DNA of 64,000 bases. Source: Eledone cirrhosa (lineage: Eukaryota). Under the pieces are notes generated by a model, which was not told the DNA's origin, searched no databases, and saw nothing but the letters and a program-made list of their open reading frames with translations. The stretch covers positions 28,954,001 to 29,018,000 of the forward strand of contig OZ024743.1 of NCBI GenBank assembly GCA_964016885.1, in the 5' to 3' direction. The position numbers and the translations under genes are program-made. Positions 16,726 to 56,996 of the stretch are shown piece by piece. The number at the start of each line of letters is the position of its first letter. Within the stretch, counting starts at the first letter, position 1.

Positions 16726-16817
16726 ACATATTACATATGTTTCACTGTCGATCAATTCGAGGAATGATCTATTATTGATCGAACCTGACTCTGGAATTGA
16801 AAGATCCTCAGATATGC
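16726..16817 (-). ncRNA. Type I hammerhead ribozyme motif (Penelope-like pLTR)
   Basis: Minus: GCAUAU-CUGAGGA-UCU...long hairpin...AGU-GAAAC-AUAU-GUA-AUAUGU; stem I GCAUAU/AUAUGU, palindromic stem III, GUA site. Confidence 0.7.
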
Positions 16818-17033
16818 TCCAATATGGAGCTTACATATTGAGGCATATCTGAGGTTCGATCAATAACAGATCGTTCCTCTAACTGATCGATAGTGAAACA
16901 TGTGTAATATGTTATTAAATATGTTATGATGCAACACTGATTCTTTGTTCCTTTATTCTCATATTATATATATCTCCTTTCATGTCAATGCATATATATA
17001 TACATATATATATATATACATATATATATATAC

Positions 17034-17064
<31 letters not shown>

Positions 17065-17087
17065 CATATATATACATATATATATAC

Positions 17088-17176
<89 letters not shown>

Positions 17177-17319
17177 GAGAATAAAGGAACAAAGAATCAG
17201 TGTTGCATCATAACATATTTAATAACATATTACACATGTTTCACTATCGATCAGTTAGAGGAACGATCTGTTATTGATCGAACCTCAGATATGCCTCAAT
17301 ATGTAAGCTCCATATTGGA

Positions 17320-17411
17320 GCATATCCGAGGATCTTTCAATTCCAGAGTCAGGTTCGATCAATAACAGATCATTCCTCGAGCTGATCGACAGTGAAACAT
17401 ATGTAATATGT
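17320..17411 (+). ncRNA. Mirror hammerhead copy with CUGA>CCGA core mutation
   Basis: gcatat-ccgagga-tct...agt-gaaac-atat-gta-atatgt. Confidence 0.6.
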
Positions 17412-18900
17412 CATTAAACATGTTATGATGTAACACTGATTCTTTGTTCCTTTATTCTTATAATATTATACTCTGCTCTGCGCGAGCATTGAGTGCTCAC
17501 TCGGCATACCTATACACGTAAAATGATGATGATATATATATATATATCAACATCATCATCATCACAAGTTAATGTCCATTTTCCATGCTTGCATAGGTTA
17601 GACAGGTTGCCCACGTCATGAGACAAGACTGGCCAGTTGGCTGCACCAAACCTTACTCATAGTGGAGCCGTGTTATTGGGTTAAAAAGGTTTAATAGGGA
17701 AATGTGGATATGGTGTTTTTGTGATAGCATTGACATGAAAGGAGAGATATTAAAAAGGATTGGGGCTATTTGGGGCTTGCAGTTATGTTCTAAATGGCTA
17801 AATATCCTGAATGAAAGAGCTATAGAAGGACACTTCAGTACATAGTGGTTTATAATATTGAAGTTTTCAAAACACTAGTAATATTATTATTTATTTCATT
17901 TCTTAGCTTTTGTTTAGCCATTCGTGAATGGTATCTTTCATGGTTCATTTTTTTCTTATATATCATGAAAAATAGAATTTAATAAAATATGTACTAGACT
18001 TGAAAAAATAAGTACTGAGACTAATATGATTGACTAAACCCAGTCCAATGAGAGAAACCAGTAAAAGAATAAAAGGAAAAAGACAGAATGATAAATAAAA
18101 TCTAGGTTGGAATTAGGAAGGGTATGCAACTGCTTCAAGAAGTCTTATTCAACCCAAGCCAGTATAGAAAAACAAGTTAAAAAGAAATGATAAAGATGAT
18201 GATGGTGAATATTCACTAACTGTTACTCTGAGTTTCATGTGAAACTTCAAGTAATGATTAGTGAATTTTTCTTCTCAGAACATAATAAAACTCTACGATA
18301 CATATTGAGAACACCATTTTCTACTTCTTGTTTGTGTAGCTCTTTACCACTTAGCGTACATGCATACTTGTAATGTAAACACACATATAGGCAGATACAA
18401 AAACATGCACATGTACATATAAACCTAAATAGACATACGTATACATGTGTACAAAAGATAATTTTGTAAACAAAAAAAAAAGATAAAAGATAAAAGATGT
18501 AGCAATTATGAGAAAGACTGATCTTTGGAGTTTAATAATGTTTCAATGAAATGTGTGTGTATGAGTGTAACAAAGTATTATCATATGTATGTGTGCATAT
18601 ACATATTTATTCTATGGGTTCATTACTATTTTAAATGCTTTATCATGAACAGAAAATCTTTCTAAAATCAAAACACTCAGTCATATAAAAATAAAAATAT
18701 ATGTGCTATTATATATTTAAGAGGAAAATGAAAATTATCTGAAACACTAAGAATATTTGGATTTTCTAAATAAATATAGTATTAAAGAGAATTGCTGATG
18801 AGCCTTAAATTTAAATTGCAAACAACTGAAACAATGCCAATATTGTTTAAAATAGTGATATTAACTTAAATGCTAGATAGAGATTTCAGAATAAATGTAC

Positions 18901-19080
18901 GTTGACTACAATATCCCCACATGATATAGTGAATAGAATTGATGTAAATTAAAAAAAGAAGGATAATAAATGATAATATTAAATTTGTTGCTTTTTCTAA
19001 AATGTTATCAGAGTAGATTTCATCAAACTTCAGCAATCTTTCGAATCTAACATTTACAAACATAATAATTCTTCGAATCT
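18901..19080 (-). pseudogene. Exon-like block, CNG channel S4-S5-like (IRRIIMFVNVRFERLLKF...ILSFIILLFLIYINSIHYIMWGYC)
   Basis: Bounded by ctgtag| and |gtac; 180 bp, open, phase-symmetric; basic segment followed by a hydrophobic helix. Confidence 0.5.
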
Positions 19081-19257
19081 CTACAGATATTTGAGAAAAC
19101 ATTATTTTAGATTGCATACTTCCATCTGGGTTTCTTTTGTAGTCTCTTTTACCAATATAAAGGCATATATGTGTGTATGTGTGTGGAAGAAAGAGAGAAG
19201 TTAATACATCATCTCATTTAAATAGTGTGTATGTATGTATGTGTGTGTACACGTGAA

Positions 19258-19385
19258 AGTGCATGGCTTAGTGGTTAGAGTGTTCAGCTCATGATCGTAA
19301 GACCATAAGGTTGATTCCCAGTGGTATGATGTGTCCTTCAGCATATCACTTTATTTCAAATTACTCCAGTTCACTCAGCTGGAAA
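19258..19385 (+). mobile_element. SINE family 1 copy
   Basis: catggcttagtggttagagtg A box; degenerate core. Confidence 0.65.
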
Positions 19386-19669
19386 AACTCTACCTGTATT
19401 TCAAGGGGTCAGCCTTATCAAAGATTTTGTCACACTGAATGCACACCTCTGTAGAAAGCTCAAGCACTTGCACACTAATTTCAAGATCAAGCAGGACCAT
19501 TGATTAAACATCTGGGACACTCATCATCAGAACTGACAGTATGACAGCAAACAGACACATGCATATAGCTGTACATTGAGATAAAAAGGACAGATCCTGA
19601 ACACTATAGATCTCTCCTGCAATCAGACCTGGACACAATGTAGCATGGATCACAGACGGGCAACTCAAG

Positions 19670-20475
19670 CTGGCTGTGGACAAATGTACCACCATGCATT
19701 TTGGGAGGAAAATCCCAGCGTCCACACACTCCCTTCACAACACTAATATCAAGAAGTCTTCTTGTGAACTTGACCTGGGCATTACTGTCAGCAGCGATTT
19801 GTGTTGGACAACGCACATCTCTAAAATTGTCAAGAAGGCCAAGGGTTTCTTGGCATCACTCAGCAAGATCTTTGTCACCCGCTCTCCAGCTATCTATTTA
19901 AAGCTGTATATAGCTATGGTGCGGCTACACGTAGAATTTGCATCACCAGTCTGGAACCCCTATCTTGCTCAGGATATTGACCTCCTGGAAACTGTTCAGA
20001 GATGTGCAATCAAGCAAATAGCCTCCATAAGGCATCTACCAAACTCTGAATGCCTTGCTTCCCGGGGCATGGATACATTGAAACTCTGACGTCTGGCAAC
20101 TGACTTGGTATACACCCACAAAATCATTAACCATCTTGCCAACAACAACCCTGAGCAATTTTTTGATTTCCATGTGTCTAACACACGTGGGCATGCCTAC
20201 AAAGTCAGAAAACAGCAGAGCTCCCATGACCTTCGGAAACACTTTTTCACACTCAAAGTTGCTGAAGCACGGAACAAACTACCTGCATCAGTTGTTAGCT
20301 GCTGACACACTGCATCCTTTAAAACCTCAATGAAATTCGCCAACACTACACTGGATATCCCCCCTCCACACACACACACACACACATGTATATCATGACT
20401 CATACACTGTTCATTTTCCTGACATTTGTACATTATTCTATGTAAGTGCACCTGAGTACTATACTCATTAATTTC
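19670..20475 (+). mobile_element. CR1-clade LINE 3' fragment
   Basis: KCTTMHFG, ELDLGI, LYIAMVRLHVEFASPVWNPY, LETVQR, FFTLKV...NKLP. Confidence 0.9.
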
Positions 20476-22164
20476 ATTATTATTATATATAATGTGTGAA
20501 TGTGTGTGTGTGGTTGTATGTATACATGTGTATTTATGAATGATTTCGTGTGTATATATAAATATGTTTATAATTCACATTTATATATGTATATAATTAA
20601 TATATATGTATATAATTCACATTTACTCACAGTATATTTCGAAACATACCCATATAATTACATGAATCATAACAAAAATTGCATACGTATTTGCTTTTAT
20701 ATGTCTGAAACACTCATTCTATTGATTATCATCTAATCATGCTAAAAGTTCCCCATAAGAGATTATTCAAAAGTATATCACAATCATACACATTTCATTC
20801 AAATCACATGAAAAATGATAACTCCATTGTCAAGGTGTATCTAAAAAAGGATCAATGGCATACATTTTTCTTTGCCATTACCACTTTCATTGTTGCCATC
20901 ATCCTCACTTTAGCATTGGTTCTTTCATATTTGTATAGGAAAGATGGATCTGATGTAAAATATATAATCCATAATCATGTCATCAAGTTTGCTATCTAGT
21001 TTGTAAAGCTACCATCTTGAAATGATCTGACTATTTCTTTCTTGTACGCCCACCTCTGTCTTTCTCTGCTGTGAGTACATCCCACCATCAGCATGATATT
21101 TATTCACTTAACACCCCACCACTAGCACAGTCATCTTTCTTGAATACTTCAACAGATGGTTTTATGTCTTGTCACATTTTTAGTTTACCCAAACACCAGC
21201 TTTAATGCAAGTTATCATTGCATGCAAAACAAAATATCATCATCACTGTTTTACATCTATTTTTCCATGCTAGCGTGGGTTAGACGAGTTGTCCTGTTGT
21301 GGGAAATGCTAGGTCAGGTGATCATGTCTTGCTCATACAGAACTGATTTGTGTGACATGGTGCACATCATAATTTTCTCCGACTTCAGCAGCTCCGAGAC
21401 ATTCAATACTTTTCTTTCACTAATATGTAACATCACACACTTTCATATAGTTCCCTTTTTATATGGAAAACGTAATTGTTTATGGCAATCATTAGCAACA
21501 AGTCCCTAAACTTCTTCCCTACTACCTCTAATTCTAGCACTTATTTCATCATTTAAATAACAGAAACTGAACTCCTATTGGCTCCTGTGAAGCAATCGAG
21601 TAGTTCATATGAATTAATGAGTGCTCCACCTAATTACTCCAATGCATTTATTACATCTAAAGCCCTGCTTCTTTGTCAGTCTATCTCACATCCAATTCAT
21701 TCCAGATGAGCATTGAAATTTGGCCAATTGTATTTTGTCAAAGACTTAACTTTACACTAAGGTTATGTAAGTGTTAATATACTTAATACAGAGAGCATTG
21801 AAAAAAATTAAATTTAGTCAATGATTAATATTATTATTTTTCTTTTCTTTTTATTGCAACTATCAAAGACAACACTGGACATGCTTTGGTCTTATTCTGA
21901 CCTTGTCAACAATACATAGATTTTACTGTATCTCTTGGAGTCACTAAGTAAATGTACAGAATATTGTACATTAGTTAGTGTCAGAAATTTGGTAATTTAG
22001 ATAAATAAAAATTGTTTATAGAATAAATAATTCAGAGATGCCATCCACAGGGTGTTAGCCTTAACATATATTATGACAGGTACATTAAAAAGCTAACTAG
22101 AAATAATTATCTAGTGAGGAGAAACTTGTCTTACATAATAGAAGAGCTGTTACAGACATATACA

Positions 22165-22772
22165 TAGATATATAAATATTAATAGCTTCTGTAAACTAAG
22201 CGATCTAATTATCAGTGGAGAAGGTTGCTCTGAAGGTATGGTAGCAAGAATAAGAAAAGGATGGAGGAAATTCAAGGAACTATTACCTCTGTTGATAATG
22301 GGTTTTTCTCTGTGAATGAAGGGTGGGTTGTATAATGACCATGTCTCAAGTGCAATGTTGCACGGTAATGAGATATGTGGTGAATGCAGAGGATATGTGA
22401 AGGCAGGAGGGTTATGAAGTGAGTGTGATACTTTGGATGTGTAATGATGTGGATGAATATCAAAGCATGGATGAATAAAAGAAAAACCTGGATAAAAGAG
22501 GAATTTGATGTAATGTGCAAGATAGACAACAGTACTGGTATGAACATGAGATGCATACGGATGATGTTCATTGGGTGAAGAAGTGCCAAAAGATCCAGGA
22601 GGAAAGACGCTGCAGTAAAGGAAGGCTAAGACAGGAGTGGTAAGAGCAGATCCCAAAACATTGAACCTTGCAGAGATGGTGAGGAACTTCAATGAGTGGA
22701 GGGAAGTTATGCTGGAAAAGGCCTACCCCAACCCATGGAAACAGAAAAATGGACGTAAAATGATGATGATGA
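22165..22772 (+). mobile_element. Degenerate RTE 3' fragment
   Basis: DNA homology to family A 3' end; ends ggacgtaaaatgatgatgat. Confidence 0.75.
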
Positions 22773-23039
22773 ATTATACATGGAAATTAGAATTTGATAT
22801 ATAAAGATAATTTACAGAGAATTATTGAAAGCATACTAAAATATGTATGTGGTATAAAATATATTGTTTGCTTTCACTGAGTTTCTATTTTTGATTTTTT
22901 TCTTTCTCTGGCTACAAATAATTTACTTTCTCTTTCCCTTTCTCTCCCCTTCCATACACCTTCCTAACACTCCACTCTTCACCAGCTAAGTGTCCATACC
23001 CTAGACCTACCTCACCAATCCCCACCCTACATATATGCA

Positions 23040-23385
23040 CCTCCCCCACCACAGCCCCCAGTCCACATTGTAAAGTGGTTGTTTAGGTGCCATGACAAAA
23101 AGCACCCAGCCAACCCAGTAAAGTGGTCATGTTGGTACGCAACAAAAAGTGCCCAGCCCACACAGTGAAGTGGTCATTTTGGGGACATGATAAAAAGCAC
23201 CCAGTCCACACTATAAATGTGGTTGGCATTAGGAAGGACATCCAGCTGTAGAAACCAAGCCAGAAACAGTTCTGTATGAATAAGATACAGTCATTTGATC
23301 TGACATGTCTCACAAAGGGACAACTTGTCTAACCCATGCTAGATAGAAAAATGAAGATTAAACAGTGATGATGATGATGATGATG
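23040..23385 (+). mobile_element. Stand-alone RTE-associated 3' module
   Basis: Several aaaagcacccag..gtaaagtgg units, ggttggcattaggaaggacatccagctgtag, (GAT)n tail. Confidence 0.8.
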
Positions 23386-23664
23386 TTTCTGATAATGCTG
23401 ATATTGTTAATGATAATGGTAACAAATTGTAGAACTTGCACCTATGTAGGTCTAGCTGACCTCCTATGAAATTTCATCTCATAGGCAGCTTCTTGCATGT
23501 TTTTATAATAAGGGCCACCAATCCTATTATAAAAAGGAACATGAAATCAAAATGTTTTACTCAAGAACAAAATGTCCCACCCAGACCAAGAATTGAACCC
23601 ACAACTTTATGATTGAGTCCAACTCACAAACCACTCAACCACATGCCTTCACGATGGTAATGAA

Positions 23665-24045
23665 AATAATTGTTTCTACTTTTGGCACAAGGCCAGCAAT
23701 TATCCCAGTGTATTACTGGTACTTTATTTTATCGACCCCGTAAGGATGAAAGGCAAAGTTAACCTCGGCGGGATTTGAATTCAAACCATAAAGGGCTGTA
23801 ACTTTTTGCTGCAAAGCATGGCGTCTGAGCCTTTACCAATACTGCCATGAAAATAATAATTGTTTCTACTTTAGGCACAAGGCCAGCAATTACCCAGTGC
23901 ATTTCTGGTACTTTATTTTATCGACCCCATAAGGATGAAAGGCAAAGTTAACTTCGGCGGGATTTGAACTCAGACTGTAAAGTCGTAACTGTGCTTGAAA
24001 GCATGGCGTCCAACCCTCTACCGATACTGCCAATTCACCGCCGTT
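23665..24045 (-). mobile_element. Two tandem SINE family 2 copies
   Basis: aattgtttctac...gatgaaaggcaaagttaac...gggatttgaa occurs twice. Confidence 0.85.
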
Positions 24046-24289
24046 GAAAATAATAATGCTTTGTAATATTAGCACAAGGTCATACATTTAATAATGATGA
24101 TGCTGATGATGATGAGGATGAGGAGGAGATGTAATTAAACATTACAAGGCATTTTGTCTGATGATTTACTAATCCTACTCCCTATCACTCATACATTAGT
24201 AGGATTGATGGATAGTAATACCAGCAACAACATCAACAACAAAGATTATGACAACCATGATACACAGTAGAATAAATGTCCATTCTTAC

Positions 24290-24433: not shown

Positions 24434-24532
24434 CTGCATCAAATTTTTTATAAATATTATTAAAACAAAATCAATGGAATTAATCAGAGGAAATATTTAT
24501 AATACTTATTTTCAACTTTAGTTATTAACTTT

Positions 24533-29905: not shown

Positions 29906-31240
29906 AGAGAAATATATATATATATATATATACACACTCACACACATTAGCAGTAGAATTAAGATACCGTGATTCATAATATAGGCAGATATAATAAGTT
30001 TATATATAGTCTTGCTATAAATGTTTTATGCTGTTTGAGAATGCCAGGCATTCATGTTTCAAGTTTTTTATCCATCATCAGTGATGTTTACTCATTCAGT
30101 ACTGCAACAAGAATAAGCCATAACTTATATACTTTTGCGTATCAAACATTTGCTAGAGATGCTCATTTGCCTATAGTGTGAGCTTGATTGGTTAGGATTA
30201 ATTAACAGTAGCACTAACAGAACATAATTTATAATAGAAGTATATATGAAGGAATGTACAATATGTTTACGCATAACAAACATATATAAGTCTTGCTATG
30301 AATGTTTTAAATGGTGCTCATGTTACAGCTACCACAGTAGTCGTGTGAGAACACCAGACATTAGTGTTTCAGGATTTTAACCCATCATCAGTGATGTTTA
30401 CTCACTTGGTACTGTACCTTAAGAAGCTAAACCTCACAATGCACCATTACAAGCAAGGCACCCTATATGCCCCTCCCTCCTGTCTGTATTCTATATGTAA
30501 TACCCCACCCACAGATACCACCACTCCATTGATTCCTGAACCAATTTCACAATGTGGCTAACTGCAGTACATACCTGACTACACAAAATCCCATTGACTC
30601 CACTCTAATTAACACTCTTATCTATTATCAATATACTTCTTCCACTATCCCCCATTCCACAATCTTCCTATTGCCATTAAGAAATTATTATTGGAAAAAG
30701 AATATGAGATGAATATGCAAAAAATACATTATAGTCTTAATAATAGACATTCTTTCCAATATACTAATTATTTAATAATTCTAAGTATCATTCGTTCCAG
30801 AATATTATGTTTTGACTTCAAATCCTGCCGAGGTCAACTTTGCATTTTATAGTTTTGAGATTGATAAAATATAGTACTAGTACAAATTTCCCTTCACACA
30901 TAATTGCTGGCCATCTGACTAAATTAGAAACAATTATTTACAGGTGAAAAAAAATTACATGTATACCCAGGAGGCAAAGAAATTCTATAGTACACTTAAA
31001 TAGCAAGTTTAATTTTAATGAAGAGTAAATCTTTTGGAAGAAGAACTATCTAAACTGACTAACACCACTCTAGTAATGTTTCACATTATAATAACAATGT
31101 AAATTAGATGGCTATTTTGACAGATATTATCTAGACATGAATCTTATTCAAGTATATTGTTTGTTTCTTATGTTTAACTTCATGATTCTTTTTATTTTCT
31201 GTTATTTGAATATATCTATATATTATTATTTTATATGATT

Positions 31241-35365: not shown

Positions 35366-35436
35366 AAGGACGTAAAATAAGAAAATATTTTTTTAAAAAA
35401 ATTAAAAAAAAAAATTTTTTTCTTACTTAAATTTTC

Positions 35437-35518
35437 ACTCCAACTAATTAGTTTCTGCAATGGGATAAAGACAGTTATGTAATCCAACTGTCGAGAATTC
35501 ATTGCGTCATCAGGAAGT
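35437..35518 (-). ncRNA. Hammerhead ribozyme, unit 1
   Basis: ACUUC-CUGAUGA-C-GCAAUG..GACAGUU..AACUGUC..CAUUGC-A-GAAAC-UAAUUA-GUU-GGAGU. Confidence 0.85.
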
Positions 35519-36004
35519 CTATTCTCAGTTAAGTCTCCAGGCAATGCGCGGACACTGGCGGCTCATATAAAAATAATAATAATTCGGTAGATCGAACAGC
35601 TTGCGAGGACTGAATTCTATGTACCGAAATTCTCACTGCTTCAAGTCAAATGGCCGATTCTAAAGAATCAATCACGTGACACAGAGGCTAGTTAGAAGGA
35701 ATGGGATGGTAAGATGACTGACGCCTACTAACACCCCAAAAAAAAAAATTTTTTTAGAAGTGGTTTTGACAAGTTTGCTCGACAAATCAGTGATTTGGAG
35801 ATAAATATAGATAATTTAATATATCAACTAACATAAGCGCACAGATGCACGCCCATGCCAGCAAATACACAGGTTATGTCATAGTACCTAGGTGGTTCAA
35901 TGCAGGAGAATGCAGAACAATAATATAAAGGACGTAAAATAAGAAAATATTTTTTTAAAAAAATTAAAAAAAAAAAAAAAAATGTTTTTCTTACTTAAAT
36001 TTTC

Positions 36005-36086
36005 ACTCCAACTAATTAGTTTCTGCAATGGGATAAAGACAGTTATGTAATCCAACTGTCGAGAATTCATTGCGTCATCAGGAAGT
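36005..36086 (-). ncRNA. Hammerhead ribozyme, unit 2
   Basis: Identical to unit 1. Confidence 0.85.
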
Positions 36087-36567
36087 CTATTCTCAGTTAA
36101 GTCTCCAGGCAATGCGCGGACACTGGCGGCTCATATAAAAATAATAATAATTCGGTAGATCGAACAGCTTGCGAGGACTGAATTCTATGTACCGAAATTC
36201 TCACTGCTTCAAGTCAAATGGCCGATTCTAAAGAATCAATCACGTGACACAGAGGCTAGTTAGAAGGAATGGGATGGTAAGATGACTGACGCCTACTAAC
36301 ACCCCAAAAAAAAAATTTTTTTAGAAGTGGTTTTGACAAGTTTGCTCGACAAATCAGTGATTTGGAGATAAATATAGATAATTTAATATATCAACTAACA
36401 TAAGCGCACAGATGCACGCCCATGCCAGCAAATACACAGGTTATGTCATAGTACCTAGGTGGTTCAATGCAGGAGAATGCAGAACAATAATATAAAGGAC
36501 GTAAAATAAGAAAATATTTTTTTAAAAAAATTAAAAAAAAAAAAATTTTTTTCTTACTTAAATTTTC

Positions 36568-36649
36568 ACTCCAACTAATTAGTTTCTGCAATGGGATAAA
36601 GACAGTTATGTAATCCAACTGTCGAGAATTCATTGCGTCATCAGGAAGT
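36568..36649 (-). ncRNA. Hammerhead ribozyme, unit 3
   Basis: Identical to unit 1. Confidence 0.85.
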
Positions 36650-37135
36650 CTATTCTCAGTTAAGTCTCCAGGCAATGCGCGGACACTGGCGGCTCATATA
36701 AAAATAATAATAATTCGGTAGATCGAACAGCTTGCGAGGACTGAATTCTATGTACCGAAATTCTCACTGCTTCAAGTCAAATGGCCGATTCTAAAGAATC
36801 AATCACGTGACACAGAGGCTAGTTAGAAGGAATGGGATGGTAAGATGACTGACGCCTACTAACACCCCAAAAAAAAAAATTTTTTTAGAAGTGGTTTTGA
36901 CAAGTTTGCTCGACAAATCAGTGATTTGGAGATAAATATAGATAATTTAATATATCAACTAACATAAGCGCACAGATGCACGCCCATGCCAGCAAATACA
37001 CAGGTTATGTCATAGTACCTAGGTGGTTCAATGCAGGAGAATGCAGAACAATAATATAAAGGACGTAAAATAAGAAAATATTTTTTTAAAAAAATTAAAA
37101 AAAAAAAAAAAAATGTTTTTCTTACTTAAATTTTC

Positions 37136-37217
37136 ACTCCAACTAATTAGTTTCTGCAATGGGATAAAGACAGTTATGTAATCCAACTGTCGAGAATTCA
37201 TTGCGTCATCAGGAAGT
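37136..37217 (-). ncRNA. Hammerhead ribozyme, unit 4
   Basis: Identical to unit 1. Confidence 0.85.
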
Positions 37218-37696
37218 CTATTCTCAGTTAAGTCTCCAGGCAATGCGCGGACACTGGCGGCTCATATAAAAATAATAATAATTCGGTAGATCGAACAGCT
37301 TGCGAGGACTGAATTCTATGTACCGAAATTCTCACTGCTTCAAGTCAAATGGCCGATTCTAAAGAATCAATCACGTGACACAGAGGCTAGTTAGAAGGAA
37401 TGGGATGGTAAGATGACTGACGCCTACTAACACCCCAAAAAAAAAATTTTTTTAGAAGTGGTTTTGACAAGTTTGCTCGACAAATCAGTGATTTGGAGAT
37501 AAATATAGATAATTTAATATATCAACTAACATAAGCGCACAGATGCACGCCCATGCCAGCAAATACACAGGTTATGTCATAGTACCTAGGTGGTTCAATG
37601 CAGGAGAATGCAGAACAATAATATAAAGGACGTAAAATAAGAAAATATTTTTTTAAAAAAATTAAAAAAAAAAATTTTTTTCTTACTTAAATTTTC

Positions 37697-37778
37697 ACTC
37701 CAACTAATTAGTTTCTGCAATGGGATAAAGACAGTTATGTAATCCAACTGTCGAGAATTCATTGCGTCATCAGGAAGT
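37697..37778 (-). ncRNA. Hammerhead ribozyme, unit 5
   Basis: Identical to unit 1. Confidence 0.85.
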
Positions 37779-38261
37779 CTATTCTCAGTTAAGTCTCCAG
37801 GCAATGCGCGGACACTGGCGGCTCATATAAAAATAATAATAATTCGGTAGATCGAACAGCTTGCGAGGACTGAATTCTATGTACCGAAATTCTCACTGCT
37901 TCAAGTCAAATGGCCGATTCTAAAGAATCAATCACGTGACACAGAGGCTAGTTAGAAGGAATGGGATGGTAAGATGACTGACGCCTACTAACACCCCAAA
38001 AAAAAAAAATTTTTTTAGAAGTGGTTTTGACAAGTTTGCTCGACAAATCAGTGATTTAGAGATAAATATAGATAATTTAATATATCAACTAACATAAGCG
38101 CACAGATGCACGCCCATGCCAGCAAATACACAGGTTATGTCATAGTACCTAGGTGGTTCAATGCAGGAGAATGCAGAACAATAATATAAAGGACGTAAAA
38201 TAAGAAAATATTTTTTTAAAAAAATTAAAAAAAAAAAAATTTTTTTCTTACTTAAATTTTC

Positions 38262-38343
38262 ACTCCAACTAATTAGTTTCTGCAATGGGATAAAGACAGT
38301 TATGTAATCCAACTGTCGAGAATTCATTGCGTCATCAGGAAGT
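38262..38343 (-). ncRNA. Hammerhead ribozyme, unit 6
   Basis: Identical to unit 1. Confidence 0.85.
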
Positions 38344-38925
38344 CTATTCTCAGTTAAGTCTCCAGGCAATGCGCGGACACTGGCGGCTCATATAAAAATA
38401 ATAATAATTCGGTAGATCGAACAGCTTGCGAGGACTGAATTCTATGTACCGAAATTCTCACTGCTTCAAGTCAAATGGCCGATTCTAAAGAATCAATCAC
38501 GTGACACAGAGGCTAGTTAGAAGGAATGGGATGGTAAGATGACTGACGCCTACTAACACCCCAAAAAAAAAATTTTTTTAGAAGTGGTTTTGACAAGTTT
38601 GCTCGACAAATCAGTGATTTGGAGATAAATATAGATAATTTAATATATCAACTAACATAAGCGCACAGATGCACGCCCATGCCAGCAAATACACAGGTTA
38701 TGTCATAGTACCTAGGTGGTTCAATGCAGGAGAATGCAGAACAATAATATAAAGGACGTAAAATAAGAAAATATTTTTTTAAAAAAATATTTTCTTATTT
38801 TACGTCCTTTATATTATTGTTCTGCATTCTCCTGCATTGAACCACCTAGGTACTATGACATAACCTGTGTATTTGCTGGCATGGGCGTGCATCTGTGCGC
38901 TTATGTTAGTTGATATATTAAATTA

Positions 38926-38977
<52 letters not shown>

Positions 38978-46645: not shown

Positions 46646-47223
46646 TCAATATATATATATGCACACTTCCTAATTGCCCCATCAACAACACAGAAGTGTG
46701 CATGAGAACATATATGGTCTATAACAAAGGTTCTCAACGGGGAGGCATATGCACCCCCAGGGGGCCTTTCGGAACTCCAGGGGGGGGGGGGGGCGTTTGG
46801 GAGTAAGGTCGCGTTAGGGGGGCGTTTGGAGCTTGAGGGGGGGGGGGGGTAGGGGGCGCTGGAAGACTCTTTAGTTTGGTAAGTTTTATAAGCCATATTT
46901 GTATGTCTTTGAGACACCCAGTGTGAATGCCTTTGAATGAACTTGCAGACTGCATAACTATAGTCTGGCTGCAGCTGTGAGCAGGCGTGTCTAGACATTA
47001 ACCGGTAATTGAGATCCTAAAAATGAAAAAACCCATAGTCATTTGGGTCAAAGGACACTTTGAGTGCAGCCAGTTAGAATCTTATCTTTCCTTCACCGAT
47101 AACAATGCATTTCAAGTCTGAAATTATTGACTCAACCGTAACGAGTTAACACTATGTAGATCTACTTTATTCCCTATTGTATAAATAATATTACAAATAA
47201 AAAAAGAAAGAAAACACAGAAGC

Positions 47224-47577
47224 GGGTAGCACACATATCTAGGACCACATACAACACATAAGCAGGTAATACATACATCTAGGACCACATACAACACATA
47301 AGCAGGTAATACAAACATCTAGGACCACATAACACATAATCAGGTAATACAAACATCTAGGACTACATACAACACAATCAGGTAATACATACATCTAGGA
47401 CCACATACAGCACATAAGGATGTAATACACACATCTAGGACCACATACAACACACAAGCAGGTAATACATACAGCTGGGACCACATGCAATACATAAGCA
47501 GGTAATACATACATCTAGGACTACATACAACACACAGGCAGGTAATACATACATCTAGGACCACATACAACACACAT
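47224..47577. repeat. 40-bp minisatellite, ~9 copies
   Basis: Unit aggaccacatacaacacataagcaggtaatacatacatct. Confidence 0.95.
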
Positions 47578-47578
47578 T

Positions 47579-48616
47579 GTTTCATGTGCTACGGACGATG
47601 CAGGAGCAATGGTCGGCCTACATAAGGGCTTCGTCACTCTTCTGAAGAGAGAAAATCTATCTGTATTTGCTGTTCATTGTGTCATTCATCGACAACACTT
47701 GGCTGCGAAGAAATTCAGCAAGCCTCTGAGCAAGTCCTTGCAGGTGGCCATTGATGTCATCAATTTTATCAAACGCCATTCCCTCAATGAACGAATTTTC
47801 CAGCAACCATGCCAAGATAATGACGAAGAATTCATCAAGTTGCTCCTTCATACTGAAGTGAGGTGGCTTTCAATGGGCAAGTGCCTTACTCACTTCTTTG
47901 AACTGTTTGACTATCATTGAGTTTCTGAGAGGATGCAACACAGAACTGTACAAGAAAACCCTCGACTGCGCCTACCTCACCAACATCTTCGACAAATGCA
48001 ATAGCGTCATTTTGGCTTTGCAGGGGAAAAAGATCACCTTGTTTAAAGCAAGGAATGCTGTGAAAACATTCGTGGCCAAATTGAATGTCATCGAAAGGAA
48101 TCTTTGTTGATGGGAATTCTATAATTTTCCTAGTGTCGCCAATGTTCAAAACATTGTAAGCGATGACCAACTCCAAATTTATACCACTCATCTCCGTGCG
48201 CTGCAAGACAACATGAGATAACGGTTTGTCAACCTTTTGCCGATGGACATCCCAATGTGGATAGCAGATGCTTTCATAGCTAACGTCGACGATTTGGACG
48301 TTAAATTTCAGGAAGAATTCATTGAACTTCAAGCAGATGACATGATCAAAATTAGATTTCCCAAAATAGGTGAACCCCTTTTTGGGATGCAAGAGGAAAT
48401 TCAGCGTTGATTTCCACACCTACATGCAGAGGCTAAGAGCCTTTTCCAAGCTCATACTTAGCCGAGAGGAGGTTTGATGTTGTTTCCAGACTACACAGTA
48501 AGGCTCGCAACCGCTACAATGTAATTACACGTGGAGATCTCTGGCTACATATTAGGAAAATTCAGCCTCACGTCAAAGCGTTAGCTAGACTCCATGAAGC
48601 TCAAGGGTCCAATTGA
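47579..48616 (+). pseudogene. hAT Buster/Charlie transposase C-terminal half, frameshifted
   Basis: ATDDAGAMVG, HCVIHRQHL (CxxH), LLHTEVRWLS, AYLTNIF, LQGK. Confidence 0.9.
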
Positions 48617-49613
48617 AATGAGTCAAAGTTAAAGTAAGTTGATTTATACGAAAACTTGGATATGCTATTGTTACAAAGCAAACTAACAATTTTTATTTGT
48701 AGTTGCAGTCTGACTGGACTGGAAACCATCTACTACAATTCAATTACTCATTTGTTGTATATATTTTACCATTTATTAATAAATATACCCTCCCGCGTGG
48801 TCATGAAAACCCTCTTCCGTGGTCTCTAAGCTCACAAAGCAGGGGGACATCAAGTTTGATATCAACATTTATTCTGTCCGTTTCATTAAAGGGAAAATTG
48901 GAAAGCTTTGAAATGATATAATTGCCACTTTCTTCCAGATAAGGGCACTCTTGGCATAGACAGAGTTTCTCTTGTATAAATGTTCAAAATAGCTGGTATC
49001 GCCTGGTGGGAATATAACAAATTCAACTGGTCCTTATTCATAAAAAAGAACATTTATGTTCCTTTTTTTGAAATTTATTTATTTCCTTTCAAGGAATGTA
49101 TTTATACTCTCAGCTGCCTGAATATTGTTAATCAATATTTTAGTAATCTACTGATATCAAAATCAGTAGTATATTGAAAAATGGAAAAATAAGGTGATTT
49201 CAAGGGACAAAAGGGGGTGTTTGGCCTAAATGGGTTGAGAACCTGTGGTCTATAAGATCACATGCAAAAAATGTAGCTCCTCATACATCAGAAGTACCAT
49301 AAGGAGGCTACATATACGGCGCAAGAAGCATGTGACAATGAGAGCCTCTTGCATTAAAAAACATCATGACAGATGCCACAACCAAGACATTGAGGTCACC
49401 ATTGCGGCGACTGAAAAGAATATAAGCAATTTAAGGATTAAAAAGGCCATTTTCATCAGCCAAATAAAACCAGGGATAAATAATAGGTCAGAAATGTTCA
49501 AGGCAAAATGGTTACTGTAGCAACCTAGTGCATGCATTTTTCAGACACATAGACCAGTTAGGGAAGAAAACTTCAAACATTCATTTTGTTTTGTCTTGGA
49601 GTGTTTCCACTTC

Positions 49614-49651
49614 ACATTTGAAAAGAAGGTAATAGCCCTGAAATATCATGT
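49614..49651 (+). ncRNA. Degenerate minimal hammerhead in the Penelope pLTR
   Basis: ACAU-uUGAaaAGA-AGG-UAAUAG-CCCU-GAAAUAUC-AUGU, ~95 nt after the endonuclease stop; core mutated. Confidence 0.45.
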
Positions 49652-49957
49652 TAAAATACACTGGGTAAAACATTACTTTGTTTTATTTTGTTTCATTTGA
49701 CATCATTTGTCCTTTGTAATTTTATACCACATTGTACTGGCTTTTAAAAAATTATCAGTCTTATATATATATATATCATCATCATCATCATCGTTTAACG
49801 TCTATCTTCCACGCTAGCATGGGTTTAGACGGGTCCATATATATATATATATACACACACGTACATATATAATTTTATTAAAAAGCACCTCTTACAGAAT
49901 CAAGAGGTCATCAGAGAAAGAAACAGAACTAGTCCTGTAAGAGTCATTTGCATTAAA

Positions 49958-50130
49958 ATAATTGTTTCTACTTTTGGCACAAGGCCAGCAATTATCCCAG
50001 TGTATTACTGGTACTTTATTTTATCGACCCTGTAAGGATGAAAGGCAAAATTAACCTCGGCAGGATTTGAACTTAGACCATAAAGGGACGTAACTCTATG
50101 CTGCAAAGCATGGCGTCCGACCCTCTACCG
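49958..50130 (-). mobile_element. SINE family 2 copy
   Basis: Reverse complement of the family 2 consensus. Confidence 0.85.
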
Positions 50131-50162
50131 TGTTCTTGCATTAAAATAATACCACCTCTTGA

Positions 50163-50170
50163 TCATCATT

Positions 50171-50201
<31 letters not shown>

Positions 50202-51881
50202 CCGTTTTACGTCCGTTCTTCCATGCTAGCATGGGTTAGACGGGTTGTCCTGTTGTGGGCAGTGTCTGGTCGGCTGACCATGCCTTGCTCATACAGGAAC
50301 TGATCTGGCTTGATTTCTACAGCTGGATGCCCTTCCTAACACCAACCTCATTTACAGTGAGTGCTGGGTGCTTTTTCGTGGCGCCTACACGTCCACTTTA
50401 CAGTGTGGGCTGGGTGCTTTTTTGCCGTGGCACCTCCACAACCACCTTGCGGTGGAGGGGGGGCATATTATTTATATGCTTCAGCATGTACCCATGGGAG
50501 GTCGGGTACCCTGTATTACTGCGTGACGCCAGAAGTCACGGTCGTGTGTCATTGACTTTGAGAGGTGTAGTTGGGTAAGGTCGGCTTTTATCACCTCATC
50601 CCAAGTCATCTTGGGTCTCCCCACTCCGCGGTTTCCATCAACTTCTAGTGCTCTGCACCTTTTTATGCAGCTGTCATCCTTCATACGCATCACATGTCCA
50701 TACCAGCGTAACCGCCTCTCCTGCACGCAGCATTTGATTCCTCTTATGCTCAGTCTCTCTCTCAATTCCTTTATGCTTTGTCGTTCACGTATATTACTTG
50801 TACACATCCATCGGAGCATGCAGGCTTCGTTTCTCTCTAATCTACGTAAGTCTTCCACCTTCAGCGCCCAGGTCTCACTACCATGCAACATCGCTGTTCG
50901 GATACACGCATCATACAGTCTGCCTTTCATTCTGAGGGAGAAGCCTTTTGCAGCTAGCAGTGGTAGTAGTTCCCTAAACTTCTTCCATCCCGTTCTTACC
51001 CTAGTTATTGTACTTTCTGAGCACCCACCTCCGTTGCTAATTCGGTCACCTAGGTAGCAGAAGCTGTCTACTGTTTCTACAGGGCCCTCCCAGAGATTGG
51101 TGGTACTTGTTTCCTGTGGCTGTTTGCTTGCTGTTTCAGCACAGCTGCTGCATGTGAATCCTACATTCTTAATTAAGCTTCCTGAGATCCCGCTACATCT
51201 CTTGTGTACCCATTGTTTGCATTTGGGGCAGAGAATGGAGTTCCTACCTACACCTTTCCTACATACTGAGCAAGGCCATTTCCCTGAGGGGATCTGGGTT
51301 CTGTTTTCTCGTCTACTTATAAGGACCTTAGTCTTTGTCATGTTGACTTTGAGGCCCTTTCTCTCTAGTCCCTGCTTCCATGTTTGGAATTTATTCTCTA
51401 GTTCTACCATAGATTCAGCTATGAGTGCGAGGTCATCAGCATACAGGAGTTCCCATGGGCATTCGGTCTTAAACTCCTCCGTTATTGCCTGCAGGACTAT
51501 GATGAACAGGAGAGGGCTAAGAACAGAGCCCTGGTGGACCCCAACCTGTACGCTAAATTCCTCGCTATACTCATTGCCAATCCTAACTTTGCTGACTGCT
51601 CCCCTATACATGGCTTGCACCGCTTTCACAAGCCATTCATCTACTCCTAGTTTTCTAAGAGCCCACCAGATTACTGCACGTGGAACTCTGTCAAAGGCTT
51701 TCTCAAGGTCGACAAATGCCAAGTAGAGTGGCTTACTTTTAGCTAGGTACTTTTCCTGTAATTGCCTCACAAGGAAGAGGGCATCAGTGGTGCCTTTCCC
51801 TGGTACAAACCCAAATTGCATCTCGTCTATATTCACCCGGTCCCTAATCAGCTGTGCTATAACTCTTTCTGTTACTTTCAT
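50163..51881 (-). mobile_element. 5'-truncated RTE LINE family B with open RT ORF (50481-51881) and ~300-bp structured 3' extension
   Basis: 466-aa ORF with QFGF, FVDLEKAFDRV, QGSVLSPLLF, YADD, zinc finger, RRLRWYGH; (CAT)n tail. Confidence 0.95.
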
Positions 51882-52029
51882 CTTTTAAAATCAAAAATCT
51901 AAAATTAAAGTTTCAAAATACACTGAAAATGTTAGGTTTCATAGTAAGATATGTATCATAATATACATATGTTAAAATCTGAACACCAACAGTGTCACTA
52001 TCAGCTGTTTTGGGGCTTTCCAAAAGCAA

Positions 52030-52156
52030 TGAAGTGATAGCAATTAGAGTGTGGGACTCATGATCATAAGGTTGTGGGTTTGGTTCACGGAATGGGTTGT
52101 GTGTTGTGTTCTTGTGCAAGACACTTCATTTCATGTTGCTCTAGTTTACTCAACTG
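52030..52156 (+). mobile_element. Degenerate SINE family 1
   Basis: gtgttcttgtgcaagacacttcatttca core. Confidence 0.55.
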
Positions 52157-52564
52157 AAAGAAAAAACAATTATCAGAAGCAACAGCTGGAGTTTAACCCT
52201 GTAACAGACTGAAGTAATAATCTTTTGGCAGTGGATTCTTTACAGACCCAACTTACTAATAGTTTTCTTGGACATTGTTGTTTTACTTTTTGTATCTGTA
52301 TAACATTACAATCTTTTAAAAGAGGAAACCTATTAATGTCTCAATATGCTCATATAGCTAGAATTTCTCATTATTAGACAAAATTAGCAACTGAAAGATT
52401 ATAATGGCCTGATCACTGCATGGTCAATCTTAATCCCAAAAGATGAATTATTCATTGATAGCATGGAAATGCATAAAAGGAATCTGAGAGATTCAATCTA
52501 CTTTAATTTCTTGAATTCTTCCTTTTACAGCTAACCTAACCAGAAGTTATATAAATGTATATAG

Positions 52565-52812
52565 CAGTGGTCATGTGGGTGTCATTACAAAAAGCACCCA
52601 GTCCACACTGTAAAGTGGTCATGTAGGAGTCATGACAAAAAGCACCCAGCACACACTGTAAATGTGGTTGGTGATAGGAAGGGCATCTAGCTTTAGAAAT
52701 CTAGCCAGAAAGTCCCATATAAGCAAGACACGGTCATCTGACCCAACTTGACTCTATTGGGACAACCTGTCTAACCAATGCTAGCGTGGAAAATGGATGT
52801 TAAATGATGATT
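52565..52812 (+). mobile_element. Stand-alone RTE-associated 3' module
   Basis: gtcatg..catgacaaaaagcaccca units; ggttggtgataggaagggcatc; terminal tgctagcgtggaaaatggatgttaa. Confidence 0.8.
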
Positions 52813-53859
52813 ATGGTGAAATGTGTGTTTGTGTAGATGCATATATGGGTATGTATATATATAACAATAATACAAAAATCCACCAGATTACAGATGGATG
52901 GATACACACATATTTGAAAATTAATATAATCTCCATAAATGAGGCAACATACATACTATTATTTTACTAATGAAGATTATGATGATTATAATGATGAACA
53001 CACACTAAACTATCCTTTCTTCCACCCCAAATATTTTACCCACACAACCAGAAAACTCTGTCTGTCTATTTAAAAACCTATGTGAATAAATAGTGGTTTT
53101 TACTTCAGACACATTGCTAATTTTTGTATGGGAGCAACATATTGTAGTTAGATATTTTTGCTGCCATATTGCTATTAAAAGGCACTATTATGATTTTGAA
53201 AGAATTTAGAAAATAGAGAATAATTTGGATGGATTTAGTAAATTAATTAAGATGACAATGGCTCTTACATAAAATTATGATGGAACGTTTTTAAATTAAT
53301 CTAACCACTTTAACACAAACAGTTTTGTAATATGGAACCAGGGGTGATTTCATGTGATTTGGTATCAAAAACATCAATCAAATCATGTATTTACTAATAC
53401 TTAATTTATCAAAAGTGGAGGAATAATATGTACTGTAATGTTAACTACAGCAAGATTTCAACTCATAAAGGAGATGAATTAAATATCATTGTTCCATTAC
53501 CGTTGTTCTCTTAATGATATAAAATAGTATGATATGAGCCTAATTTTTCATGTTTACATAAATATTATTTAAATTACTGTATTTTGTCTTTCCCAATAAA
53601 ATCTGCCATTTTCTTGAGACCTTCCATATATTGAAGTTAAAGCTGGTTCAGGAATTGAGCCCACAACATTATGGTGTTGGAATTACGGTGGATCGTCTTT
53701 AACTTTAACAATATATATCGACAGTTGATCAACAAGATCCCAGATCTCATTCGCTTCACGAGTGGGGTGGAGCTCGTCAAATTGGACTGAAGAAACAATG
53801 TTTCCATTGGTCTTTCCAATTGCTAATACTATCTATTAGTCGCAAATCCAGGTAGAAGG

Positions 53860-53979
53860 AGCAACGTGAAATAAAGTGTCTTGCTCAAGGACATAACACA
53901 TCGCCCGGTCCGGGAATCAAACTCACAACTTCATGATTGTGAATCCAATTCTCTAACCACTCAGCCACAGACCTTCACA
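53860..53979 (-). mobile_element. SINE family 1 copy
   Basis: Minus: tggctgagtggttagag..gagtttgattcccgg..tccttgagcaagacacttt. Confidence 0.8.
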
Positions 53980-54118
53980 TAATATATATAAAAGGTCACA
54001 ATAACAAACTTTCTGAAAAATGTCTAACATAAACACTTTTAAAGAAATGAATCATGAAATAATCAGAAGCCCGAAATTTCATTAAAGCTTGATAACTTTG
54101 TAAGCAAATTTTATTTAA

Positions 54119-54628
54119 TACTAGCAGAGGTACCCGGTGTTGCTCGGGTATTAAATAGCAGTTATGTATACCATTTATGTCAATACTTCAGTGCTGCTTC
54201 GAAAACTATACTTTTACAAAATCATCCGCTTTTTCCAAAAGGAGGTTCCTGCCCCCACAGGTCCCCTACTCAATATGTGCCAATTCTGAGAATTCACATT
54301 CATCTGTAAAACAAACGTAGCCCATGTGTCAAGTTTTGTGAAAATCGGTTGCGAACTCCAGAAGTTATGACGTTTTGTTGCATTGCACTGCAGTGCTTCA
54401 GTCGACTCCAAGGAAGTGGTTAAAGGGGGTTATCTGCCGGGAGGCCCTATAATCAATATCTGGAAAAATGAAAGTGCCCATGACCATCCGGAGTACATAA
54501 GTAACCTGTCTTAAGTTTGGTGAAAATACTGTAGAAATGCATAAGGTTTACACACACGTGCGCGTGTTTGTGTGTGTGTATGTATTTGTGTGTGCGTATG
54601 TATGTGTATGTCCGTCGGCGCATATATA
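54119..54628 (+). mobile_element. Helitron-like non-autonomous element (Lep1/HINE-like)
   Basis: 5' actagcag + hairpin tacccggtgttgctcgggta; internal caagttttgtgaaaatcggt motif; microsatellite end. Confidence 0.55.
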
Positions 54629-55004
54629 CTGGCCTAAATCTTCACTATTTACTTTTACTATTTTAATAACCTCTGTCATTTTCGTTTTCAATTTTATTTA
54701 CATCATACTTAAACTCCGGGGCTGGAAATCATTCGGTTATATTAAATAGAATATTAGTCTAACGACTTCATTTACACCATAAACTTGGTCTTGTCTTTGC
54801 ATGAAATTGTTCTTCTTGGTCCACATAACAACGTATTATCCTCACTTTTTTTCGGTTCATTACCAGGGAACGTCTTCACAAACCAAAATATCGCCTTCCT
54901 GTTTTCCTCCGGTTGAAACGTTTCTCGAAATATTTACTTATGTGTTCACAGATTAAATTTTTTAGTTTCAGAAGATCCCGTTAATGTTGAAAGCAGCGAT
55001 TCTT

Positions 55005-55040
<36 letters not shown>

Positions 55041-55619
55041 AAGAGAGATGTTTTGTACGGCTTTTGGAGGAAGGAATGATCAGCAGTACGTTGTTCGGTA
55101 TTATTACGGAAAGGTGTAGCAGAGAATCCCACATGGACTAACAGCTCGGGAGGAACCTGCTTACCTCGAAGATTCATTTGCCATCGTTCTTGTCAACGCT
55201 CCGTTTACTTGGTATTTGTTGGTCTACAGTTAGATGAATGGCGCACAAAGGGTTAATGTTTATTGGCAAGAAGTTTTTTGAATAATAAAAGACGGGTTAA
55301 AGCGACCTACAATGTATCTGTGTGTGTATATATATATATATATCATAAATCATGTCTTTAGAATCATCAGATAATAAAATATATACTATTTCTTCTTCTA
55401 ATTAGCATAACTAACCATATAAAAAATCATCATTTTTTAATTTATTAATTCTTCATAGAGCTTAAAAGTTATCTGATGATTCTAAAGACATGATTTATGA
55501 TATAATGCTCTGATTTTTTAATTTATTAATTCTTCATAGAGCTTAAAAGTGACCAGTTACAACATGTATATATCTATAACTTTATGTATATGTTAACCTT
55601 TATATATATATATATATAT

Positions 55620-55815
55620 AAGTGGTTACACAACAGTTAGTTCACCATACCAAGAACAATCGTTTCACCTTAGCGGATCCTCAGCTGAGGATCCGCTAAG
55701 TAGAACAATTGTTCTCGGTATGGTGAACTAACTGTTGTGTAACCACTTCTATCTAACTTGTCCCATGGACTGAGTGCTCTACCACTACGGATATAACCTT
55801 CCAGTGTTCTACCAC
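55620..55815. mobile_element. Palindromic HHR-containing fragment (Penelope-like) in (TA)n
   Basis: ~64-bp arms centred at 55684/55685; minus arm reads CUGAGGA-UCC-GCUAA-GGU-GAAAC-GAUU-GUU. Confidence 0.65.
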
Positions 55816-56143
55816 TATATATATATACACAGATACATATATATATATATATATATATGTGTGTATGTATGCATATATATATATATACATGTGTGTGTAT
55901 GTATGTATATATATATACATATATTTTTATGTGTATATTTATATATGTGTATATCTATATATGTGTATGTGTTTGTATATGTATATATATATATTGTTAT
56001 GCTTTGAGAGGGTCATGTTGCCAATAAGAAACACACGCACCAGTTGCTTTCACTCCAATTTATTATAAATTAAATTTATCAATTTAAGAATTTATAAATT
56101 TCCGGTTGGTTGGTTCCCATAACTGGACGGTTGTTCATATATT

Positions 56144-56186
56144 GTCAAAGTTCTTTCGTCACACATTCTGTGACCTCTTCAGAGAC
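56144..56186 (-). ncRNA. Minimal type I hammerhead (stem I mismatch)
   Basis: GUCU-CUGAAGAG-GUCACA-GAAUG-UGUGAC-GAAAG-AA-CUU-UGAC. Confidence 0.65.
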
Positions 56187-56277
56187 TGGGGATTCTTTTC
56201 TTTGTTTTTGTGCCTCTCCTTTGTGCTTCTCCTTGACAGAACAAAGAGAGGCACAAAAACAAAGAAAAGAATCCCCA

Positions 56278-56320
56278 GTCACTGAAGAGGTCACAGAATG
56301 TGTGACGAAAGAACTTTGAC
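56278..56320 (+). ncRNA. Minimal type I hammerhead
   Basis: GUCA-CUGAAGAG-GUCACA-GAAUG-UGUGAC-GAAAG-AA-CUU-UGAC; stem I GUCA/UGAC. Confidence 0.8.
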
Positions 56321-56996
56321 AATATATGAACAACCGTCCGGTTATGGAACACACCAACCAACCGGAAATTTATAAATTTAATTTATAATAAATTGAAGTG
56401 AAAGCAACTGGTGCGTGTGTTTCTTATTCGCAACATGACCCTCTCAAAGCATAACAATATCGGTTTCAACACACGTTTTCAGATAAAGAATCTTGCTAAA
56501 CAAATTCAGAAACGAAATATATATATATATATAGTTAAAAGAATAGAGGTGTAACACACAAGTTATTATATATTGGTAAACGGAATAGAAAATGCTGACA
56601 AATTGTTCACAGTTGAAAAATGGTTTAATTAGGAATAAAAGAGTATTAGTGATTGTATGGGTTAGTATTCAGTTGTGGTTTTAAGTTTTTAAGTTTTTAC
56701 CGGTTGCGCATTTCTAAATGCTTTTCAAAAATAATTTTGAGATAGAGTGTCCGTGCTGTTTGCTCTGATCTGATTAGTTTTGGGAATTCTACCTGTTTTT
56801 ATGTTAAAAAAGTGGCTCCAGCGTTATTTTTGTGTTGCAAAAATGCTTGTGGTCAAAACAATTTTGATTGGTCGGTAGAGGTCATGTGAATGTAAAAAGT
56901 TGATTTTGCGCCAAGACTGTTTTTATGTTAAAATGTTAAAAAAGTGGCTCCAGCAAAAATTATTGGTCAAAACAATTTTGATTGGTCGGTAGAATC

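Follow-up and report, generated by a model that had tools for sequence, protein, structure and literature searches.

This study concerns a 64,000-nucleotide stretch of the Eledone cirrhosa genome (assembly GCA_964016885.1, contig OZ024743.1, positions 28,954,001 to 29,018,000 of the forward strand), hereafter the window, and the hammerhead ribozyme motifs that it carries. The window represents 64 kb of a 3.0-Gb genome, is AT-rich, and is crowded with LINE (long interspersed nuclear element) fragments as well as with (TA)n microsatellites; all coordinates below are counted from its first letter. A first-pass annotation had singled out five apparently unrelated hammerhead-bearing elements between 16.7 and 56.3 kb, all abutting (TA)n and four with inverted copies, and had proposed a guild of Penelope-like elements (PLEs) and non-coding ribozyme parasites sharing one insertion mechanism. 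All five do adjoin (TA)n, and our analysis identifies them as the ends of three coding PLEs (families C, D and E) and two non-coding hammerhead elements (A and B). Their head-to-head arms with two fixed ends form a footprint that most likely derives from a Penelope reverse transcriptase (RT)-endonuclease priming off both strands of a cut TA repeat.

Hammerhead-bearing families at the locus

The window was scanned with a type I hammerhead descriptor requiring a stem I of at least 4 bp, with 100 block-wise dinucleotide shuffles as the control. Nine motifs were found against 0.24 in the shuffles, none of which reached nine: one in family A (16811, minus strand), six in B (35513-38338, minus), one in E (56282, plus) and one in F (30391, minus). 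The type I core (CUGANGA, GAAA and UH) with stems I-III is present in the window copies of these four families, and in D it is complete in genome copies and incomplete in the window copy. Only E has the G10.1-C11.1 pair, its place being taken by U-U in A, D and F and by C-A in B; an axolotl U-U variant has some activity (PMC7229834; here and below, published work is cited from the portions of text available). Stem II is long in A (61 nt) and B (51 nt), and the palindromic stems III of the window families fit the dimer mode of hammerhead action described by Cervera and de la Pena (2014; PMC4209133). Self-cutting is predicted for these families on their sequence. The originally reported motifs at 16.8, 35.5-38.3 (six) and 56.3 kb accordingly fold as type I hammerheads and that at 55.7 kb retains the core, but that at 49.6 kb is non-canonical; a sixth family, F at 30.4 kb, had been overlooked. 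A further hammerhead-like match at 55433 was discarded as chance, its core being missing in relatives.

Family A is represented by two non-coding fold-backs. The first (16619-16968, minus strand) joins a long arm bearing a tail of ~55 nt to an inverted short arm, and holds a type I hammerhead at 16726-16817 (minus) with a 6-bp stem I, the core CUGAGGA, a predicted cut at GUA, the 61-nt stem II closed by U-U and the palindromic stem III ACAUAUGU. The second (17173-17517, plus strand) has a core changed from U4 to C, CCGAGGA, at 17326 (plus). The two do form an inverted pair, but each member is a fold-back, and the doubling stems from a distinct event, a local inverted duplication of 1.5 kb (16315-17823) that is centred on (TA)n and includes unique flank. 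Within that duplication, 16969-16992 is a 24-nt copy of 16392-16415, which suggests template switching. The longest genome copies of A measure ~730 nt, and 7 of 22 loci reach a single 5' boundary, at (TA)n(TG)n. In none of these 22 does the 3' arm have a direct copy upstream, as it would in a tandem organization, and A, B and F show neither a match to the six PLE protein pieces compared nor an ATG frame longer than 89 codons. By its sequence organization A would thus work like a non-autonomous PLE-like element, not a tandem retrozyme.

Family B forms a long tandem arm (35366-38788, minus strand) of six units of 561-568 bp, each with a hammerhead (position C3 at 35513, 36081, 36644, 37212, 37773 and 38338) whose 51-nt stem II is closed by C-A, whose stem III is ACUAAUUAGU and whose predicted cut triplet is GUU. 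The long arm stops at one fixed site in (TA)n, the short start site, and an inverted arm without hammerhead (38773-38927, plus strand) ends in (TA)n at a long start site, 122 nt past the short one; the arms overlap by 16 nt at their junction. In B, the youngest of the non-coding families, the 564-bp unit is 99-100% identical across chromosomes, as are the two arms of arrays. There are two further subfamilies with units of 530 and ~528 bp, ~73-75% identical, in which the start sites are homologous and stem II covaries. The stem II base occurs as GCAAUG/CAUUGC, GAAAGG/CCUUUC, GUAAGG/CCUUAC and GGAAUG/UAUUCC, one position pairing through all four Watson-Crick types; these compensatory changes were examined in B-type elements. 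Tested as a non-LTR retrozyme (LTR, long terminal repeat), B proved to consist of non-coding tandem units with a type I hammerhead in each and dispersed copies.

Family F (29933-30415, minus strand) comprises two tandem units of ~310 bp, one with an intact hammerhead at 30391 (7-bp stem I, GUC triplet) and one with a decayed motif at 30081. It is an old 310-bp tandem, with ~80% identity among copies. The proposed TA targeting holds for the other families but is weak here, being seen in 3 of 15 parsed loci, of 25. We provisionally file B and F as non-LTR retrozymes on their genomic sequence. At least ten other hammerhead families occur in the genome (L347-L386), many with long stems II.

The three remaining families belong to coding elements. 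Family C begins, 5'-truncated, at 46661-46724 (plus strand) next to (TA)6 with the cysteines of the endonuclease linker and a first GIY-like motif, and resumes at 49256-49762 (plus) with the GIY-YIG C-terminus and a 3' pseudo-LTR (pLTR) that ends in (TA)n and holds a minimal hammerhead at 49614-49651. The first-pass annotation had described this motif as degenerate and downstream of a GIY-YIG frame, which is borne out: the 3' fragment lies there with the core TTGAAAA, and C departs from the type I core. The window core occurs in 1 of 30 loci and resembles the U3-A8 variant of PMC4209133, while CTGAAAA was found in 9 of the 21 loci that could be parsed (9 of the 30 could not). Upstream, the family extends into decayed RT and GIY-YIG fragments of broken copies; we file C as a Neptune/Nematis-type PLE, its place between Neptune and Nematis being set by motif only. 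The two parts of C are separated by a 2.5-kb DNA transposon (46725-49247) with 14-bp terminal inverted repeats and the 8-bp target site duplication GTCTATAA, which sits inside the GIY-YIG domain and holds transposase-like fragments. From the length of its target site duplication we take it to be of the hAT superfamily.

Family D (55621-55814, plus strand; long arm plus, short arm minus) is a fold-back of the 3' end of a Hydra-clade PLE. Its window hammerhead at 55684 (minus) has an intact core and a stem I of only 2 bp, because the inversion centre cuts through stem I, and genome copies restore the stem as CGAG/CTCG. D lies at both ends of a 2.58-kb pLTR-open reading frame-pLTR unit, an RT-GIY-YIG frame lies upstream, and the D RT yields 32,355 first-look candidates. 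The frame carries RWR, DKT, CxCX5C, CxxC and CxH without CCHH (loci L402, L275 and L405), corresponding to the motif set of Hydra elements (RWK, DKT, CxCX5C, no CCHH, CxxC and CxH, length below 3 kb, TA target). Pfam returned no family for the 585-aa frame, and we assign D to the Hydra clade by these motifs. The idea that D is a fixed hairpin unit, akin to a miniature inverted-repeat transposable element, was rejected when a one-arm query showed that its junctions vary; with that query 9 of 30 loci had no inverted arm within 1.5 kb.

Family E (55994-56516, plus strand) is a fold-back of the 3' pLTR of a Neptune-type PLE with a 56-nt tail. Its hammerhead lies at 56278-56320 (plus) and its inverted short arm at 55994-56227, with a motif of broken stem I at 56182 (minus). 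The family is preceded by an RT, then the linker CX4CxxC and then a GIY-YIG domain with CCHH (Pfam GIY-YIG, E=1e-4), features by which E is filed as Neptune-type. The elements at 55.6 and 56.1-56.3 kb, once taken for non-coding parasites, are therefore truncated ends of coding elements. The proposed link to PLE reading frames holds for C, D and E; no helper was matched to the non-coding families.

A shared insertion footprint with two fixed ends

Coding and non-coding families share one insertion footprint. The arms lie 5' to 5', both 3' ends sit in (TA)n, and each family has two fixed 3' ends, spaced 122 nt apart in B, ~115 in the B' subfamily, 65 in D, ~57 in E and ~55-80 in A. Among 40 B arrays, 27 are inverted and 13 one-armed; the inverted arrays comprise 26 with one long and one short end, one with two short ends and none with two long ends, whereas independent choice of ends would allow at most 50% mixed pairs (P ~2e-7). 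B', a 75%-diverged subfamily, behaves alike, with 12 long-short pairs and one short-short pair among the 13 arrays in which both ends were seen. For A, D and E the query itself selected the long arm; across these 82 loci the partner was short in 43, long in none and of another kind in 5, and 34 had no inverted arm. TA follows the long end at 18 of 22 loci of A, 29 of 30 of D and 28 of 30 of E, against a background of 9.7%, and at all six readable start sites the TA continues for 2-5 nt in the RNA. The inner junctions differ between copies, most of them having a short overlap, and in D they favour the palindromes AGCT and ACAATTGT. The short fold-backs give strong predicted hairpins (-107 to -358 kcal/mol). 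Four of the five sites in the window do have inverted arms, as first reported, but that of the 35-39 kb array lacks a hammerhead. Several pairs from other hammerhead families likewise lie at one short and one long distance from (TA)n (49/143, 55/164, 41/113 and 46/137 nt).

One objection would be that the inversions arose as fold-back artefacts of the assembly or the library and that the motifs are products of chance. The 99-100% identity of B arms would suit such an origin, and Rfam scans matched no hammerhead family. For the motifs this explanation is refuted by an unselected genome sample (below), in which 41 were found against 0.45 in shuffles; for the inversions, arm divergence amounts to 5-19% in A and E and the asymmetry is fixed, and the ends are common to hundreds of loci. 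We consider it scarcely credible. Arrays and fold-backs might alternatively arise in DNA after a simple insertion, by slippage or unequal exchange, with (TA)n cruciforms or replication template switches producing the inversions. The 1.5-kb inverted duplication centred on (TA)n around A, with its 24-nt templated insert, may be an event of this kind, and variants of period 2 in single arms of B would also agree with it. An inversion of DNA, however, would not produce fixed ends of which one is long and the other short and whose unique flanks differ, nor is there a contiguous partial spread of variants (one partial variant, of period 2, among 40 arrays). Such an origin, already unlikely for B, D and E, strikes us as very improbable overall.

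The tails of the non-coding families, compared with those of D and E only, showed no similarity to the D (Hydra) tail above shuffles, and the weak similarity between the A and E tails was equalled in 13 of 300 shuffles; pairwise local alignment, a comparison of sequence and not of structure, found no start signal in common with Hydra. The proposed guild stands as a common footprint of coding and non-coding families, but a common footprint does not prove a common enzyme.

The template of the tandem arrays

The predicted cut in B lies at unit position 488, and the distance from there to the two downstream start sites is 76 and 198 nt, whereas arms can be as long as 6.3 kb; the template must accordingly be a circle or an uncut multimer. 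Variation within arrays bears on this choice. In 71,616 bases compared there are 31 singletons, four of them from an old stray fragment in locus L125; these four were left out of the mirror count, and 7 of 11 non-mirrored variants were kept. Copying of a multimer from both start sites should place the same singleton at mirrored positions in the two arms; at today's singleton density about six such cases would be expected, and none was found in 16,810 same-phase positions. Six array-private substitutions are fixed in all covered units of five arrays, four of them spanning both arms, and their number matches one monomer bottleneck per insertion. The one partially shared variant has period 2 and runs in phase through both arms of array L108, while homopolymer lengths vary between successive units; an apparent period-4 pattern in one array was dismissed as noise in poly-T length. 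Read from sequence, this pattern fits laps around one monomer and, once, around a dimer.

Alternatively, insertion could proceed in the same Penelope-type manner but from templates that are long, linear and uncleaved, transcribed from a small number of homogeneous master arrays, with the hammerhead as a passenger. Frangieh et al. (2024; PMC11167929) report that uncleaved RNA is the main substrate of a PLE enzyme and that start sites are alike between strands, findings that count against our interpretation and under which linear multimers may be the template of B. The lack of mirrored singletons, the single-monomer bottleneck and the compensatory changes that keep stem II all run counter to linear templates, and we regard them as unlikely. 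We lean instead, with moderate confidence, towards a monomer circle made by the hammerhead and copied by rolling-circle reverse transcription for up to 11 laps.

Several further observations weigh against this interpretation, besides the silence of Rfam. In one array a variant at unit position 162, masked in the mirror count, alternates in a single arm, and in the window array a tract variant is present in units 2 and 4 and absent from unit 6. Some of the singletons may be assembly errors, and the mirror test would then be weaker. The folds of monomers do not stand out (z -1.7 to +1.3), and the full hammerhead does not form in the predicted circle, where stem I has probability 0; in such a model the missing stem could equally protect the circle. 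cDNA stops at the cut site were looked for and none was seen: no inner junction of B lies at 488, the nearest being at 469-480. Position 17 is U in B, D and E, and cut triplets of this kind are the weakest for hammerheads. As for the pairing of ends, one D locus (L140), in an earlier set of 30, has two long arms.

Genomic abundance, precedents and implications

To place the window in its genome we took forty 10-kb stretches at preset positions (400 kb in total) as an unselected sample. The 41 motifs found there, in 18 of the 40 stretches, extrapolate to ~3x10^5 in the genome (bootstrap range 1.8-4.6 x 10^5). For 36 of the 41 a (TA)4 lies within 200 nt downstream, against a background of 27%, and 22 have an inverted copy upstream, against 20 of 366 control probes, although paired matches are not independent. 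The excess of motifs over shuffles and their enrichment at TA and in inverted pairs, all suggested as checks by the first-pass annotation, thus hold outside the window. The 40-kb cluster itself, which had seemed notable, proved ordinary: 9 motifs per 64 kb is close to the average of 41 per 400 kb, and special clustering was rejected, five families per 40 kb being usual for this genome. Family by family, first-look candidates number 3351 (A), 598 (B), 2481 (C), 2378 (D), 2500 (E) and 885 (F), the best 40 being scored in each search.

The window holds other repeats. At 55344-55600 lies a TA-flanked fold-back of another tandem family; over the stretch compared, no hammerhead core is present in its relatives. 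Abundant repeats adjoining (TA)n at 54800-55005, 56534-57000 and 62300-62520 recur in the flanks of other loci. An inverted pair of 675 bp (59029-59703 and 60223-60897, 97%) consists of a repeat ending in TTTTATATATATATAGAT with captured flank, seen also at 62525-62731; it resembles Helentron-type non-autonomous elements. LINE RT frames of 649 and 467 codons (57063-59012, plus; 50481-51884, minus) end in (CAT)n and are, we assume, RTE-like. Elsewhere, at C12:17.02-17.48 Mb, eight near-identical copies of a region ~60 kb apart make up a large tandem segmental repeat.

Much of what is seen here has precedents. PLE hammerheads, inversions, tails and TA preference are already published, and a link to retrozymes has been proposed. 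Craig et al. (2021; PMC8557442) describe for PLEs inverted 5'-truncated copies, a tail on one of the ends and insertion into TA. D resembles their Hydra-clade elements in its length below 3 kb, RWK-like and DKT motifs, CxCX5C linker, CxxC and CxH, lack of CCHH, pLTR hammerhead, (TA)n target and inverted 5'-truncated copy with a tail at one end, and differs in its tail (65 nt versus 30-40), in the U-U closing stem II and in that most of its copies are tiny fold-backs. E and C are like Neptune/Nematis PLEs (PMC8557442, PMC4209133) in their C-terminal GIY-YIG, CCHH, cysteine linker and minimal hammerhead, in which the base following A9 is unpaired and stem III is palindromic, whereas the family-wide non-canonical core of C sets it apart; opposite-strand hammerhead pairs 100-700 bp apart have been described for those elements (PMC8557442, PMC4209133). 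B and F share with metazoan non-LTR retrozymes (PMC7229834; bioRxiv 10.64898/2026.07.22.740005) their non-coding tandem units, single type I hammerhead per unit and low GC, B being distinguished by 564-bp units, a 51-nt stem II closed by C-A and head-to-head arrays whose ends occupy two fixed sites in (TA)n. PLEs as helpers and circular templates have been proposed for such retrozymes (Cervera and de la Pena, 2020, PMC7229834; Li, Clavereau and Pollet, 2026, bioRxiv 10.64898/2026.07.22.740005). The available text of the former nowhere uses the words inverted, microsatellite or target site, and that of the latter has no description of inverted arrays or tails. Our literature search, which covered passages of main texts (the supplements of the bioRxiv preprint and PMC8557442 may bear on the point), turned up no description of retrozyme arrays that are inverted and have two fixed ends, and a search on the presumed host group yielded nothing about hammerheads in it.

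The closest biochemical parallel is Poseidon PAc in vitro (Frangieh et al., 2024; PMC11167929), where a PLE enzyme nicks AT-rich target DNA and two internal RT start sites set the tail, as in the footprint here; the mechanism that we propose also shares with it the cutting and extension of both target strands, the AT-rich target and a predicted dimer. The start sites of Poseidon lack target homology and are alike between strands, whereas those in E. cirrhosa carry 2-5 nt of TA and are used one of each per insertion. A Penelope enzyme, probably a dimer on one RNA, would cut (TA)n; one cDNA would start at each of the two TA-bearing RNA sites, aided by the 2-5 nt of TA pairing; and microhomology, in many cases within small palindromes, would link the two cDNAs. 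If they join early, the short fold-backs of A, D and E would result, presumably dead ends because their hammerhead is either held inside a hairpin or truncated. For B, a borrowed enzyme would copy the hammerhead-cut, ligated monomer circle for many laps. More tentatively, and with somewhat less than even confidence, we suggest a general rule whereby one PLE dimer on one RNA always fires once per TA-bearing start site, one per target strand, a rule common to Hydra, Neptune-type and non-coding passengers, and whereby both enzymes run many laps on hammerhead-made circles.

How PLEs build tandem and inverted insertions, and whether they copy retrozymes from RNA circles, have been posed as questions (PMC8557442, PMC11167929, PMC7229834). 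Our contributions are the count of end pairs, a rule that crosses families and its presence in non-coding elements. The near-strict pairing of long and short ends, in three PLE types and in non-coding elements, and the haplotypes spanning both arms of very young arrays yield predictions that the available in vitro system could test. As an average sample of an element-saturated genome, the window has its value in this rule and not in a cluster. If the extrapolation is true, E. cirrhosa would hold ~3x10^5 hammerheads, one per 10 kb, exceeding the ~9,000 of Xenopus tropicalis (PMC4209133) and the up to 120,000 given for axolotl in a section title of PMC7229834, counts made with descriptors that differ from ours. 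If the proposed template is also true, the arrays would provide direct genomic evidence for the retrozyme life cycle that has been proposed.

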